The translations under genes were made by a program, and so were the position numbers. From a virus: a DNA stretch of 22,887 nucleotides. The stretch lies in the UHGV virus genome UHGV-0306720; one strand, written 5' to 3'. Positions 7,448-19,147 of this stretch are shown here, one piece after another; positions within the stretch are counted from its first letter, which is position 1, and every line of letters begins with the position of its first letter. The notes beneath the pieces are model-generated. The model was not told the origin of the DNA, did not search any database, and worked only from the letters and a program-made list of their open reading frames with translations.

Positions 7448-8500
7448 TTAGCTGTCGGCGAACTTCAGGCCAGTGACCATCGCGCACTTGCCATAGTCTT
7501 CAACGACATAAGCGTCATTGATGGACTGGTAGGTGGCGATGCGGTTGTATTCCGGTTCGTCTTTCATCAGACGACGCATTGAACCTTTCTGCCAGTAAAT
7601 CGACAGGTTGTTGAACGAGGTGATCAGCATCGTTGCATCCGGGAAGAACGGCGCAAGGAACACGCCCAGCCCGCCAATGGTGCGCGATGACAGGATGAGC
7701 TGCCCGGCAAGTAATTCCGCATTGGGATTCTGGCCGCTGATGCTGTTCAGCACGGGCAGACGCAGTGAGTTAAACAGGTTGCGCCCCATAATCACCACGA
7801 GGTCGTCAGCTTCCTTGTGCCATTCATCCAGCAGGGATGAGCGTGCGTCCTGTACCAGTGCATCAGCGTTCGCATACTTACCCGCGTGCGCCACGGTGTT
7901 GTCCATGTTGCGTGAGGTCAACGTCACGTCATTCATAACGCGCTCGCTGGCGTTGGTTCTGATGTGCTTCAGCCACCCCACGTTAACGTCCTGAAGCAGC
8001 TTGTTGGTGCTGAAGTTGGACTCATCCGCGTGAGACGTGCCGTTGAAACCGATCATGATGCGGTCAAGTGCCACCTGCCGGGCAATCTGTGCGCTGATGC
8101 GGGACTGAAAATCAGGGTGTGCCGCCCAGGCATCAAGCTGCGGATATGAAATAAACGTGTCGTAGTTCACCTGTTCGCACTGGTATTTGCGGTTTTTCAG
8201 ATCAACCACGTTATTCGGGTTACGGCGTTTTGTGCCGTCATAACTGGTATTCGTGCGTGCAATTGGCCCGGTGGTGTCCAGGAGGATTTTTTCGCCTTTC
8301 TGGTCGGTCACGCCGATCACGTTAATTCTTTTTGTAAATTCGGTGCTTTCCTTTGAGGCGTTTTCAAAACGCTGCTGCACCGAGGGTTCCACGGTAAATC
8401 GCGATACCAGTGCGGAAACCGGAATATTATTAAGCGACGCCTGCTGCGCCATATAGCAACCCAGCTTGTTGCGGGTAATATCTGACATCACCAGATTCAT
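7448..8500 (-). CDS. N: Major capsid protein gpN-like
   Basis: 350 aa; FTVEPSV and other segments match P2 gpN as recalled; strong SD AAGGAG before the ATG. Confidence 0.9.
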   Translation of the reverse strand: MNLVMSDITRNKLGCYMAQQASLNNIPVSALVSRFTVEPSVQQRFENASKESTEFTKRINVIGVTDQKGEKILLDTTGPIARTNTSYDGTKRRNPNNVVDLKNRKYQCEQVNYDTFISYPQLDAWAAHPDFQSRISAQIARQVALDRIMIGFNGTSHADESNFSTNKLLQDVNVGWLKHIRTNASERVMNDVTLTSRNMDNTVAHAGKYANADALVQDARSSLLDEWHKEADDLVVIMGRNLFNSLRLPVLNSISGQNPNAELLAGQLILSSRTIGGLGVFLAPFFPDATMLITSFNNLSIYWQKGSMRRLMKDEPEYNRIATYQSINDAYVVEDYGKCAMVTGLKFADS

Positions 8501-8523
8501 AAAAAATTTGCTCCTTTGTCTTA

Positions 8524-9360
8524 TCAGAAGTCAGCCAGCTGGTCGGAGGCTGCACCTGTTGCGGTGAACCGGTTCTGCGGATCGCCGTCCTGCGTGCGCA
8601 GTTTTTCCTTCAGTGCTGCCAGCTCTGTGGTCAGTGACGTAATTTTCTGGCGGTCCTGCTGATGGCGGGTTTCCAGCACATTAAAACGGTCGATAATGTC
8701 GGCCTGTGACGTTGCGACGCCTTCCACCGCTTCCTGAATACGGGAAAAACTGGCGTCATCCGCTTTGCGGCCACGGCCAATAATCCCCATTACGCGGTTA
8801 AACCACTGGGTGCCTTCTTCCTGGCGTTGTTCTGCCATTTCGATGATTTCAGACTCGATGGCTTCGGAGATAAGCGGTGCTTCACCCTGGACACTGTTGA
8901 ACGTCATTACCGCCTGACGTTGCTGTGCCGTAAATTTCAGGCGCTCAGTGCCCAGGCTTGCCGGGGTGTCGGTCATCGCCAGCCCGACCAGATAGGCGCG
9001 CCCGTTAACGGAGAACTGCGGGTGCAGTTCGATACTGGAATAGATTTTCTTGCCGTCCGCGACAAGCTGCTTCATGCGCTCGGTCGGTTCGATTTCTGCA
9101 TACAGCGCAGTACGTCCGGCCAGCGGACCTTCCGTAATGTCTTCTGTACTCAGTGCGGTGACATCGCCCATTGCGGAAAATTCGCTTGACGGGCATGGCG
9201 AGAGATAGTGCTCAACGTTCACGCGGGCAGCGTAAACATCCGGGTTGAAGTTCTCGGCGGCTTCACGCAGATGCACCGGACTGATTTCACGGCCATCAAC
9301 AGTTGATCCGGAGACAGCCACGCGAAACTTTTTGCGGGATGTCTTTTTTTCATTAGCCAT
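8524..9360 (-). CDS. O: Capsid scaffolding protein gpO-like
   Basis: 278 aa, acidic with a coiled-coil C-terminal part; first gene of the leftward late operon, divergent from P. Confidence 0.8.
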   Translation of the reverse strand: MANEKKTSRKKFRVAVSGSTVDGREISPVHLREAAENFNPDVYAARVNVEHYLSPCPSSEFSAMGDVTALSTEDITEGPLAGRTALYAEIEPTERMKQLVADGKKIYSSIELHPQFSVNGRAYLVGLAMTDTPASLGTERLKFTAQQRQAVMTFNSVQGEAPLISEAIESEIIEMAEQRQEEGTQWFNRVMGIIGRGRKADDASFSRIQEAVEGVATSQADIIDRFNVLETRHQQDRQKITSLTTELAALKEKLRTQDGDPQNRFTATGAASDQLADF

Positions 9361-13433: not shown

Positions 13434-13745
13434 TTACTCAGGAAATAACGCCCGGATATTCCCAGCCATCTGGCTGGTTATCTTAGCCACTGGTGCAGAC
13501 TGTGCTTCAAACTTTTTTGAGCTGATTTGTGTCACAGGTAACATCTCATCATCAGCCCATGCGGCCAGTCGGTAAGCCTCTGCCGGATTCGTCTTCAGAA
13601 GTGCCAGCCCGGCCAGAAAAGCCACGCGTTGGCCGCTTTTGCGGGCTTCTGGTGTAAGGCTGTCCAGCCAAGCGCATGCTTCTCCTTCGTTCTTGACGGC
13701 AGCTGGCTTCAGATAGAAACTTATTCTTCTGGTTGGTGTCGTCAT
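13434..13745 (-). CDS. parR: ParR/StbB-like partition adaptor (103 aa)
   Basis: RRISFYLKPAAVKNEGEACAWLDSLTPEARKSGQRVAFLAGLALL resembles the plasmid R1 ParR N-terminal region as recalled. Begins 4 nt after the parM-like stop with SD AAGGAG. Confidence 0.7.
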   Translation of the reverse strand: MTTPTRRISFYLKPAAVKNEGEACAWLDSLTPEARKSGQRVAFLAGLALLKTNPAEAYRLAAWADDEMLPVTQISSKKFEAQSAPVAKITSQMAGNIRALFPE

Positions 13746-13749
13746 TGGT

Positions 13750-14709
13750 TTACTCCTTGTTCATTGCGTACAGCCCATTAACCAGAGCAAATTGTGGCCC
13801 CCCGTCCGCGATGAAAGTCGCATTAACTCCGCAGGCTTCGCGGATAGCGGGTGCCACAATCTCCGCCCCGCCACCGACAACCATCACCCGCCCGTAACCC
13901 GAAAAAACCGCCAGCGCGCGGATCACGCGTTGTTTCAGTGTTTCTTCCTTTTCACGAATAACCGCCATCAGGCTGGCGTAATGCGCGTCATTGTGGATGT
14001 GCTGGCGCAGCCAGGCTTCATCATGGCGATGTTCGATAATGGTATTGGCGATGTGGTGACTGGTGCGCATACCGTTAGTGGCCATCACCGACAGTACGGC
14101 ATCGGCCATAAGAGAAACGCCTACGTGTGGATCGCAAAACACCTGGCTGATACCTGCCAGTTGCCCCTGAACCTTTGCCACATCCAGCGTGGTTCCGCCC
14201 AAATCCACAATCAACAGGGATTCAAACGGACTCATGTCAGCCAGTGCCTTAAAGCCAGCCGGAATGGATTCAGGCATAACCCGTACGTTACGGATAGTGA
14301 ATGCTTCGCCGTTCTGGTACTCCACCGGGCGCATGACGTTCGCTTTTTTGCGGTTGATGTTGGCCATGTCCGGCTGTGCGTTTGTATCGAAATACTCGCT
14401 CAGTGGCAGGGTGACAACCACATCCACTTCCTGTGGTGTGATGCCTGATTTGACCAGCGCGTGATGAATGGCAATTACATTCACATCGCTGTACTGGTAT
14501 TGCGTGTCGGTCGTCTGGACAAAGCGATCGCTGACCGGATCAAAACCATAGCGCACGCCATCAAGCATGTAGTTCGCGGGCTGCGTGCCACCGAATGGCG
14601 CAGACCATTCCGACTTGAAGCTGTTCGGGCTGATGGCGTTGCGGCGTTCGCCGTTCTCAGTCCATGCCAGCTTGATGTTGGTGGAGCCGTCGTCGATACA
14701 AATTTTCAT
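13750..14709 (-). CDS. parM: Actin-like segregation ATPase, ParM/StbA family (319 aa)
   Basis: MKICIDDGSTNIKLAW, YSDVNVIAIHHAL, VMPESIPAG, LIVDLGGTTLDV and VMVVGGGAEI are the actin-fold motifs and resemble plasmid R1 ParM/StbA along the whole length, as recalled. Confidence 0.85.
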   Translation of the reverse strand: MKICIDDGSTNIKLAWTENGERRNAISPNSFKSEWSAPFGGTQPANYMLDGVRYGFDPVSDRFVQTTDTQYQYSDVNVIAIHHALVKSGITPQEVDVVVTLPLSEYFDTNAQPDMANINRKKANVMRPVEYQNGEAFTIRNVRVMPESIPAGFKALADMSPFESLLIVDLGGTTLDVAKVQGQLAGISQVFCDPHVGVSLMADAVLSVMATNGMRTSHHIANTIIEHRHDEAWLRQHIHNDAHYASLMAVIREKEETLKQRVIRALAVFSGYGRVMVVGGGAEIVAPAIREACGVNATFIADGGPQFALVNGLYAMNKE

Positions 14710-17614: not shown

Positions 17615-17980
17615 TTACTTCGTCATGCCATTCAGGGTGTCGCGGCAGACGGCAGCCAGCCGCTGAATTTCCAGCACGGTGTCTTCTGTGTCGGCATGGC
17701 GATGTGTGATGCGGATGCTGTCGGCAATCACATCGACAATTGCAGAGGATGGGCGCTGGTAAATGCCAATAACGGACGGGGTGCCACCTTCAATGCGGTA
17801 AAGCCTGTAATTTCCCTCGTGGCTGTCAATCATGTAGCGACCATCAATAACAATCTTTCCGTCAGCGAGCTGCGGTACAGGCAGGGATTTCAGGTACATG
17901 TCATAACGATCACGCACGCGAGCGGCAAGATCACGTTCTGTGTTGAGCAGGTATTCAAGAAAGTCGTTGGCGAGAATCAT
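17615..17980 (-). CDS. Hypothetical early-operon protein (121 aa)
   Basis: Immediately upstream of A, same strand, 6-nt gap; no recognised motif. Confidence 0.5.
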   Translation of the reverse strand: MILANDFLEYLLNTERDLAARVRDRYDMYLKSLPVPQLADGKIVIDGRYMIDSHEGNYRLYRIEGGTPSVIGIYQRPSSAIVDVIADSIRITHRHADTEDTVLEIQRLAAVCRDTLNGMTK

Positions 17981-18052
17981 TGCGGCAATCCTCTTGTTAC
18001 AGATGTGCGAAGGCCTCCCGCCGCAAGGTGCAGGAAAGGCCCGGAACAGTAA

Positions 18053-18283
18053 TTAATGGAGTTTGTTTTGCTGCTGGATGAGCTGCTGAAGCTCGCGCAG
18101 ATCATCCGCCAGATAGCTGAAAACAGAGGCGGAATAGCTGTTCGATAGTGCGTGACTGCGCTCATGCAGCATATTGATGTGCATGATTTGCGCGACGCGG
18201 AATGCGCGGAAAAGTCTGCGGTTGATTTCAGTCTGGATGTGACGACGCGCAGCGTATGCGCGGTGCTGTTTGCGGTTTGCCAT
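18053..18283 (-). CDS. Hypothetical basic early-operon protein (76 aa)
   Basis: ATG preceded by SD AAAGAGG; basic N-terminus; no family recognised. Confidence 0.45.
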   Translation of the reverse strand: MANRKQHRAYAARRHIQTEINRRLFRAFRVAQIMHINMLHERSHALSNSYSASVFSYLADDLRELQQLIQQQNKLH

Positions 18284-18457
18284 GGTGTGGCCTCTTTGCT
18301 AGTAAGTTTTAAAAACTCACCATCCAGAGGTTCCAAGCTCGGGGTGGTGAGACGTACAGGGTTGGAACTACCGGCTAGCAAAGAACCCGGCCCGACCGAA
18401 GTCGGCCCCATACGCCCCACCATAATTCGTGTGCGAAAAAGACGTGGCGATACGGTA

Positions 18458-18488
18458 CGCACAAAAAAACCGCTGGCGCGGTTGTGCG
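18458..18488 (-). terminator. Nested hairpin followed by a U7 tract on the minus strand, inside the early-operon gap
   Basis: CGCACAA...ACCGC-TGGC-GCGGT...TTGTGCG; the plus-strand A7 run becomes U7 after the stem on the minus strand. Confidence 0.4.
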
Positions 18489-18605
18489 CTTTGCTAGTCA
18501 GCGGGGTTCCAATCCCGGCACCCGTTTTATGAGGTGCAGCGGAAATGTAACCTGACTGATTGCGGCATGGCAAGCGGTTTTTTTGTGTGTGCATGTTCTG
18601 GTTTC

Positions 18606-18905
18606 TTACTGGTTCAGAAAAAAATCAAAAACCTTGTCAATGCGTTGCAGCAGCTCTTGCTGTATTGCTTCCGGCGTTTCCGGTTCGCCCGGCGCCTCCA
18701 ACGTCGCGCAGAAATCAGCGATTTCATGATGGAGCGTCAGGCGAATGGCTGGAGCCATGGTTCTGGCGTGCTCCAGCTCATCCAGCAGTGCCAGCACAGC
18801 AGACGGCGAGAGCATTGCGCGAAACGCCAGTAATTTTTGATGCGTTGCCATTCGTTGCAGGTCAGTCGCCAGTTCGCGTAGTTCCTGGTGGTTGATGGTG
18901 CTCAT
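18606..18905 (-). CDS. Hypothetical early-operon protein (99 aa)
   Basis: 4-nt overlap with the upstream gene; no recognised motif. Confidence 0.5.
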   Translation of the reverse strand: MSTINHQELRELATDLQRMATHQKLLAFRAMLSPSAVLALLDELEHARTMAPAIRLTLHHEIADFCATLEAPGEPETPEAIQQELLQRIDKVFDFFLNQ

Positions 18906-19147
18906 GCTCTGGCTTCCTTCAGTAGCTGGTTAAACATGTGAGTAAGTGGGTTGCCACACCCGAACGGCATCGGGTTTACCTGGTAAGAGAACCGACCGCC
19001 TGTTTTGCGTTCTTCTCTGATGACTAAGCCGTCGCGCCAGAGTCGGCGTAACTCCGCATTAATGGCTGTGGTTGGGGTATTCAGTGCTGCGGCGATTTCT
19101 CCACCGCTACAACCCGGATTGGCAGCGATGTAGTCCAGAATGATCAT
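18902..19147 (-). CDS. Small putative winged-helix DNA-binding protein (81 aa)
   Basis: GEIAAALNTPTTAINAELRRLWRDGLVIREERK looks like a helix-turn-helix recognition helix plus wing; translationally coupled to neighbours. Confidence 0.45.
   Translation of the reverse strand: MIILDYIAANPGCSGGEIAAALNTPTTAINAELRRLWRDGLVIREERKTGGRFSYQVNPMPFGCGNPLTHMFNQLLKEARA

Follow-up and report, generated by a model that had tools for sequence, protein, structure and literature searches.

The 22,887-nucleotide (nt) sequence of the virus genome UHGV-0306720, hereafter the window, represents a prophage related to P2, of the P88/Xuanwuvirus type. Its early operon is encoded on the minus strand and contains a gap that separates an Ead/Ea22-like gene from the gene for a protein of 76 amino acids (aa). 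We conclude with high confidence that this gap is an antisense-RNA immunity cassette of the P4/P1 type. Its RNAs, IsrK and C4, most probably repress a small anti-repressor gene together with the replication genes that follow it, and we regard the explanation as a whole, with the identity of the element and its gating mechanism taken jointly, as probable. The RNA families, the pairing logic and the bypass by a spanning open reading frame (ORF) are all already known from P4, P1 and Gifsy-1. In the literature accessible to us, we found no description of such a cassette in P2-like helper-type phages, of an epsilon homologue as the gene gated by C4, of an epsilon-like gene nested out of frame in an eta-like ORF, or of an ATGA hand-over to replication genes.

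The identity of the element rests on two RNAs. A preliminary description of the window had listed a small RNA (sRNA) among several candidate functions for the gap and had proposed covariance-model searches and comparative folding as a check. The search of Rfam found isrK and C4, each in full length and above its gathering score (Table 1). The C4 RNA folds into a long outer stem around two inner hairpins; in the window its minimum free energy (MFE) is -44.5 kcal/mol (z -4.5), and the MFE fold is the Rfam fold. Comparative folding of 77 distinct C4 homologues showed canonical pairing in 99.5% of the cells for 27 pairs, with compensatory changes in 16 of the 27; the stem GCCGG/CCGGT was set by the search pattern and is uninformative in this count. 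The two matches also occur together in P88, P88_4B11, phiSM, 569R5 and several Stx-converting or lambdoid phages, and in phage P4 the same two models match at the positions of seqA and the CI RNA. Indeed, IsrK corresponds to P4 seqA and C4 to P4 CI (PMC3632133; PMC4825925). The c4-a1b1 model of Rfam gave a sub-threshold match only (19 bits versus a gathering score of 46.7), and a match to STnc410 was discarded as a fragment at chance level.

The repeats first noticed in the gap map exactly to the recognition elements of this RNA pair: the segments a' and b' of C4, their targets a1 and b1 within IsrK, and a second pair of targets, a2 and b2, beyond the 3' end of C4. The complements are exact over 7 nt for the a sites and 9-10 nt for the b sites. 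The arrangement equals a1b1, c4(a'b'), a2b2 in P1 immI and seqA, CI(seqB), seqC in P4. The sequence CTTTGCTAG is present three times in the window, always in the gap (18294-18302 and 18489-18497 on the plus strand, 18375-18383 on the minus strand), against a chance expectation of 0.12, and none of 100 shuffled sequences reached three copies; the start at 18293 given previously is the 18294 site plus one base, TCTTTGCTAG. For GGTTCCAA, the direct copies at 18329 and 18505 were recovered as described, whereas the inverted copy is only a 7-mer (GTTCCAA/TTGGAAC, 18362-18368). This direct pair alone is not beyond chance (0.72 expected; at least two copies in 16 of 100 shuffles). The long-range complementarity within the gap was confirmed with a repeat finder.

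The same repeats had also been considered as a replication origin or nick site for the HUH initiator, or as the relic of a tRNA or secondary attachment site, given the direct and inverted copies beside a replication gene and the T-arm-like motif GGTTCCAATCC. We find this extremely improbable, as all the repeats are accounted for by RNA pairing. The nick site of P2 lies inside gene A, and its positional homologue in the window also lies inside the gene for gpA, at 15580-15551 (GCCGCCCCTTGGACTCGTGGCAATAACTGT; about 21 of 30 bases match by eye); with up to three mismatches allowed, the nick-site sequence of P2 matched nowhere in the window, the gap included. ARAGORN found 0 tRNA or tmRNA genes, and the T-arm-like stretch is itself the hypervariable a1 target, which differs among close relatives.

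A degenerate pattern of the C4 core retrieved 120 viral contigs, which together with annotated phages yielded 107 distinct cassettes with flanks, comprising 17 a' heptamers, 50 b' 12-mers and 63 combinations of the two. On average, a loop was complementary to its own target over a longest run of 6.8-8.6 nt, versus 3.1-4.4 nt against the flanks of other cassettes, and runs of at least 7 nt were found in 74-91% of own pairs versus 0-1.8% of cross pairs. Taken singly, a'/a2 reached at least 7 nt in 91% of the cassettes versus 0.5% of mismatched pairs, and b'/b2 had a mean of 8.6 nt versus 3.85 nt for cross pairs. Relative to C4, the targets occupy a small number of fixed positions that depend on the cassette subfamily, and b2 ends in GGA, GGAG or AGA beside the start codon in nearly all cassettes. 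Even the 18 otherwise near-identical cassettes of the P88 type carry 14 a/b combinations, as counted by eye. Loops and targets are thus co-evolving specificity determinants, which fits the prediction of an RNA-RNA recognition system.

The diversity of these barcodes, both in the whole set and within the P88 type, suggests selection for distinct specificities, and it could be taken to mean that the RNAs act outward, in trans on P4-like satellites or related prophages (in superinfection immunity or against satellites), with control of the phage's own epsilon-like gene secondary. In line with this, some contigs carry tandem units with differing barcodes, and Barquist et al. proposed a defence function for IsrK-C4 in lambdoid prophages (PMC3632133). 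We consider such a primary role improbable. Every cassette has its own matching targets on the ribosome-binding site of its own downstream gene, so that self-regulation is built in, and the window holds no further match to the b site. As a separate observation, the tandem arrays consist of IsrK, C4 and Rha-type units, three of them with a 656-nt period in contig L043 and two each in L027 and L100, with a differing a/b barcode in each unit. Beyond the phages themselves, the co-varying barcodes constitute a natural, ready-made set of orthogonal RNA regulators.

IsrK is preceded by a sigma-70-type promoter found in a promoter scan, which we predict from its sequence to be the equivalent of P4 PLE and P1 P51b. 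Its TACATT hexamer ends 7 nt before the 5' end of IsrK, which puts the predicted start of transcription at about 18537. Across the 18 P88-type cassettes neither hexamer varies, unlike the spacer; the other subfamilies have TTGnnn, about 17 nt and TAnnnT at the same position before hairpin 1 of IsrK, in a different sequence. The A tract upstream of the -35 box is present in 18 of 18 P88-type cassettes (as A5 instead of A7 in two), and the homology between P88-type cassettes with differing upstream genes starts abruptly at this tract. IsrK consists of two 5' hairpins, a linker and an intrinsic terminator; hairpins and terminator pair in the 18 relatives, hairpin 1 with one compensatory change. 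The terminator scan placed the stem and U7 of this terminator where a minus-strand terminator had been recognized before. The plus-strand hairpin with T7 proposed at about 18558-18577 was not called by the scan and has by eye a stem of about 4 bp; its T7 run is the complement of the A7 tract.

Two further observations concern this upstream border. A 21-nt inverted repeat (18570-18590 versus 18457-18477, 19 of 21 complementary) brings together the A7CCGC upstream of the -35 box and the 3' half of the IsrK terminator with its U7. It could be an UP element, or it could allow a long-range pairing exclusive to transcripts from the early promoter; no co-variation was seen in it. Moreover, some relatives have additional genes between the Ea22-like gene and the cassette, namely lipoprotein/protease and membrane protein genes in P88 (L001, 4052-5082) and a DNA-binding protein gene in phiSM (L008, 640-1191). 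The upstream border of the cassette looks like an insertion hotspot.

Downstream of C4, the b2 target overlaps the Shine-Dalgarno sequence AGAGG of the 76-aa protein gene, whose ATG at 18283 lies 7 nt after it. By sequence comparison, this protein is a homologue of P4 epsilon, the helper-derepression (anti-repressor) protein. BLASTP aligned the two at 31% identity over 51 aa (E 2e-7), and a profile of eight relatives matched P4 epsilon with an hhalign probability of 94.5% (E 7e-8, 63 columns), in an alignment that reaches from the N-terminus to a FSYL(A/N)(D/E)D motif. P4 epsilon derepresses P2 through binding of the P2 C repressor. A search of solved structures with the epsilon-like profile returned no meaningful match, and the downstream proteins matched Derepression or nothing in Pfam, with no match of the Ant, KilA or Icd type. 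A scan of the contigs with the 76-aa protein found only three close relatives. Elsewhere, the position after b2 is taken by genes for Rha, Bro-N, KilA-N, Kil-like or other small proteins, which is the repertoire of anti-repressor and toxic early genes expected behind C4-type control. The earlier idea of a regulated terminator or antiterminator gating expression of A is supported by comparison and by the analogy with P4; the gene gated directly would be the epsilon-like one, not A. We also note that in L093 and L021 a Tad2-like gene (Thoeris anti-defence 2, PF11195) starts about 50 nt after C4, which suggests that control by C4 can extend to anti-defence genes.

The gap had been described as devoid of ORFs. 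We found that an ATG-initiated ORF of 205 codons crosses it entirely, passing the Phage_ASH threshold. Its start lies 11 nt past the stop codon of the preceding gene and 21 nt ahead of the -35 box. The ORF contains the epsilon-like gene out of frame, and its stop overlaps the ATG of orf121 (ATGA, 17980..17977); gpA begins 6 nt beyond the orf121 stop. The spanning frame is stop-free over 231 nt in 88 of the 107 cassettes; of the other two frames, one is open in 5 and the other in 18. In the P88-type cassettes, none of the 15 distinct epsilon-like genes interrupts the spanning frame, with a probability of being open of 0.03-0.16 each by codon shuffling; these genes belong to at least three diverged lineages, one of them very different in sequence. 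In 14 of the 18 P88-type cassettes, the spanning ORF ends on the ATG of the next gene, which is one of four different genes, and in most cassettes overall the gene after b2 lies in the spanning frame, which results in nested long and short forms. We read these patterns of sequence conservation as a sign that the spanning ORF is selected to let ribosomes pass and to couple translation, and need not encode a folded protein.

Another explanation is that the ORF is a plain protein-coding gene, an Ash-family 'transcriptional regulator', and that the RNA features are incidental. The ORF is intact and is annotated as a coding sequence (CDS) in NC_049391 and ON470599; it matches Pfam PF10554 Phage_ASH (30.6 bits versus a cut-off of 26) over residues 16-111, which are translated IsrK and C4, and PHROG 'transcriptional regulator/repressor' families at about 1e-20 over the same translated RNAs. 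We judge this explanation very unlikely. Coding constraint cannot explain the compensatory changes or the three-way co-variation of loops and targets. The ORF overlaps, in another frame, a gene independently homologous to P4 epsilon. In addition, PGAP calls the frame a pseudogene or ignores it, and the C-terminal 85 residues look, by eye, out of frame and of low complexity. The Phage_ASH match may reflect conservation of the RNA and not a folded protein. In L002, L007, L009 and L134, the translated cassette is labelled as a regulator, a hypothetical protein or an 'ash family' pseudogene. To a large extent, the ASH and PHROG regulator families may represent conserved RNA in translation and go back to the P4 'cI protein', which was later shown to be an RNA.

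Table 1. Features of the cassette and of the surrounding early operon, in the order of minus-strand transcription
Feature	Position	Strand	Remarks
Early operon, first genes		-	Order: Cox-like gene, DUF4761 gene, DUF4754 gene, then MarR-type gene onward
MarR-type winged-helix gene	19147..18902	-	
Ead/Ea22-like gene	18905..18606	-	Directly upstream of gap
Gap	18284-18605		Followed by 76-aa gene, 18283..18053
205-aa 'Ash'/eta-like ORF	17977..18594	-	ATG start; crosses IsrK, C4, a2/b2
A7 tract	18578..18584	-	Immediately upstream of -35 box; candidate UP element
Internal sigma-70-type promoter, predicted	18544..18573	-	TTGCCA, 18 nt, TACATT; promoter scan
IsrK sRNA	18537..18463	-	Rfam RF01394, 69.1 bits versus gathering score 50, full-length
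a1 target TTGGAAC	18512..18506	-	Within IsrK hairpin 2
b1 target CTAGCAAAG (RNA CUAGCAAAG)	18497..18489	-	IsrK linker before terminator
IsrK terminator	stem 18483..18468, U7 18469..18463	-	Terminator scan
C4 antisense RNA	18427..18340	-	Rfam RF01695, 82.7 bits versus gathering score 45, model 1-87 of 87
b' recognition loop TCTTTGCTAG (RNA UCUUUGCUAG)	18384..18375	-	C4 hairpin loop
a' recognition segment GTTCCAA	18368..18362	-	Single-stranded, C4 3' junction
a2 target TTGGAAC	18336..18330	-	Starts 4 nt past C4 3' end; complements a'
b2 target CTAGCAAAGA (RNA CUAGCAAAGA)	18302..18293	-	Overlaps Shine-Dalgarno AGAGG, 18295..18291
76-aa epsilon-like protein	18053..18283	-	First gene with own ribosome-binding site past internal promoter
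orf121	17980..17615	-	Putatively gated by cassette
gpA replication initiator, 940 aa	17608..14786	-	Pfam Phage_GPA E 1.8e-130; putatively gated

Four known systems resemble the cassette. The immunity region of P4 matches it in layout: it too has a constitutive-type promoter, IsrK/seqA with a terminator, C4/CI matched by the same Rfam models, a target on a ribosome-binding site, a long ORF that begins upstream of the internal promoter and spans the cassette, and an epsilon-family gene, small ORFs and a replication gene (alpha in P4) in this order. In P4, seqA, CI and seqC all lie within the eta ORF (8812..8168), whose start is upstream of PLE and whose stop overlaps the start of epsilon; kil (MATTLTPSHPEFVF...) begins immediately downstream of b2 (UUCACAGGAGG). 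In the window, the host element is a full P2-like helper-type phage and not a satellite, and the cassette lacks a kil homologue, although Kil homologues (MATT..FVFVFAAVRR..) are present in other cassettes. Its epsilon-like gene follows b2 directly and out of frame, whereas P4 has kil there in frame and epsilon after eta; the spacer between IsrK and C4 is 35 nt versus 107 nt in P4; and the replication gene encodes gpA, of the HUH family, in place of the alpha primase.

The immI region of P1 and P7 (P51b, a1b1, c4, a2b2, icd, ant) shares with the window the position of the sites matched by a'/b' on either side of C4, the placement of b2 at the ribosome-binding site of the gene that comes next, an anti-repressor as output, and the Rfam clan CL00128. 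The specificities of P1 and P7 are set by co-variation of loop and target. Different from immI, the window has no icd or ant homologue, its gated protein belongs to the P4 epsilon family, and its a1b1 part matches the isrK model and contains a terminator. IsrK-C4 cassettes with Rha, Bro or KilA-N genes in Stx-converting and lambdoid phages, which lie in the early operon with cII on one side and the replication gene O on the other, show about 73-75% nucleotide identity over the cassette and a cassette-spanning ORF in the same frame; in these, the gene after b2 is in frame, with nested long and short Rha-type forms, whereas the epsilon-like gene of the window is out of frame. Finally, the isrK, orf45 (STnc1160), anrP locus of the Salmonella prophage Gifsy-1 likewise has an IsrK that is transcribed from its own promoter and ends at a leaky terminator, a C4-like region translated in the same frame, coupling to an anti-repressor and a link to prophage induction (PMC4825925). 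It belongs to a lambdoid phage, with AnrP as anti-repressor and the AntQ antiterminator as output; the ORF in the window is 205 aa long, has its start ahead of the promoter and is coupled to replication genes.

The dynamics that we propose are drawn from P4, P1 and Gifsy-1 by analogy, and we hold them to be fairly likely. Repression in trans is established for P4 CI and P1 C4; the latter blocks the ribosome-binding site of icd in P1 and, by polarity, ant. In a lysogen of the window phage, a P2 C-like repressor would shut the main early promoter and the internal promoter would stay on. Most transcripts of the internal promoter would stop as IsrK, and the read-through would be processed into C4, which would pair with a2/b2 and occlude the ribosome-binding site of the epsilon-like gene. 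Across this gene, C outnumbers G on the minus strand by a factor of 1.5-1.9, with C-rich, G-poor RNA over 18308-18100, a composition that would leave the untranslated RNA open to Rho-dependent termination or decay, so that orf121 and gpA would be off. The internal promoter would then give rise to no anti-repressor, orf121 product or gpA. IsrK would supply decoy sites for C4, and the balance of IsrK to C4 could release translation of the epsilon-like protein, which may inactivate the repressor and lead to induction. On transcripts of the early promoter, ribosomes would enter at the ATG at 18594, upstream of the internal promoter, and translate the whole cassette, overriding the RNA structures, the pairing of C4 and Rho; the ATGA overlap would deliver them to orf121 and then to gpA, and the replication genes would be expressed. 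For P4, PMC10111431 states that translation of eta from the upstream promoter prevents termination, and that the untranslated transcript of the internal promoter (PLE) is terminated and processed to CI. Further details on P4 draw on its sequence and on the summaries in PMC10111431 and PMC3632133.

The Gifsy-1 locus suggests a different logic for the same parts. There, IsrK activates in trans the translation of orf45, which starts in the C4-like region and is translationally coupled to the anti-repressor gene anrP; IsrK binds Hfq, a property known, like the trans-activation, for Gifsy-1 only, and deletion of the isrK promoter abolishes spontaneous induction (PMC4825925). In Gifsy-1 lysogens, IsrK and STnc1160 are highly transcribed (PMC7067206). 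Transferred to the window, the read-through transcript would be inhibited in cis by pairing of a1/b1 with a'/b', free IsrK would be a trans-activator, C4 would not be a free trans-repressor, and ribosomes would start at the ATG at 18423..18421, in the Ash frame, coupled to the downstream genes. This logic was shown experimentally at the homologous locus, with compensatory mutants and with the coupling of orf45 (PMC4825925); in addition, the ATG at the 5' end of C4 is in a conserved frame and in the Rfam consensus, and a1/b1 co-vary with a'/b' as strongly as a2/b2 do. The co-variation of a2/b2 and the location of b2 on a Shine-Dalgarno sequence would, however, be needless if regulation were only in cis, and are predicted by the trans-repressor model of P1 and P4, to whose CI/C4 family the window RNA belongs at gathering level. 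We therefore see the Gifsy-1 type of control, taken by itself, as unlikely in the window. It is not mutually exclusive with trans-repression by C4, and the two are partly compatible.

The ATG at 18423..18421 on the minus strand is conserved and lies in the frame of the spanning ORF. It seems to be the counterpart of the orf45 start codon in Gifsy-1, and it could be a second, IsrK-activated entry point for ribosomes. In P88, the strand opposite C4 and IsrK carries an annotated 62-aa 'hypothetical protein' (L001, 3745-3933); this call is almost certainly spurious, over RNA genes.

Several points weigh against C4-mediated gating as we propose it. The transcript start, the termination, the processing of C4 and the direction of regulation are all inferred. 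P88 was recovered after mitomycin C, with nothing linking that to the cassette (PMC5285337). Duplex energies at single sites are not clearly better than those with shuffled targets. The leader helix between the Shine-Dalgarno (SD) sequence and an anti-SD segment, predicted from the MFE fold, is 74-82% paired with no compensatory change, and was dropped from the claim for its weak comparative support. The match of the 76-aa protein to Pfam PF25738 Derepression is marginal, with 28.0 bits versus a cut-off of 27. The spanning ORF is broken or altered in 4 of the 18 P88-type cassettes and absent in some other subfamilies, its frame could be open partly because the RNA sequence is conserved, and its start codon in the window has no obvious Shine-Dalgarno sequence.

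If the proposed model holds, one immunity and derepression module is common to helper-type P2-like phages and their satellite P4. The model would also account for the inducibility of this phage family despite its type of repressor, which to our knowledge is not RecA-cleavable. The puzzle of a structured gap is replaced by a specific circuit that can be tested. More tentatively, the RNA-gated epsilon homologue might be the own induction switch of P88/Xuanwuvirus-type phages, with the barcodes as RNA-level immunity groups that evolve by swapping of loops and targets, and the out-of-frame ORF as a 'ribosome conveyor' selected for passage of early-promoter transcripts past the RNA block and for coupling of translation to the replication genes. 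A P2-family phage would in this way gain an inducible route, which, as far as we know, P2 itself does not have. A bolder corollary, were this true, is that such phages could derepress other resident P2-like prophages via epsilon.

The 1.8 kb around the gap are 93-94% identical to Escherichia phage P88 and other Xuanwuvirus/Peduoviridae phages, and the far end of the window holds an integrase and a repressor with 52% identity to P2 C. The window gpA shares 30% identity with P2 A and is longer (940 versus 761 aa), with additional N- and C-terminal sequence. The 121-aa, 76-aa and 205-aa products matched no NCBIfam family. The cassette is common in Escherichia coli, since a region homologous to at least 80% of a 1-kb query is present in 957 of 5,426 complete genomes. 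None of the public records inspected has a noncoding RNA feature at the cassette, which is unannotated or appears as an "ash family" pseudogene, a "transcriptional regulator" or a "hypothetical protein".

Directly downstream of gpA, on the minus strand at 13434-14709, lies a pair of genes resembling a plasmid partition system, encoding a ParM/StbA protein (319 aa; PF06406 and PF21523) and a Plasmid_stab_B protein (103 aa). This pair raises the question of plasmid persistence in these P2-like phages; P88 carries a ParM annotation too.

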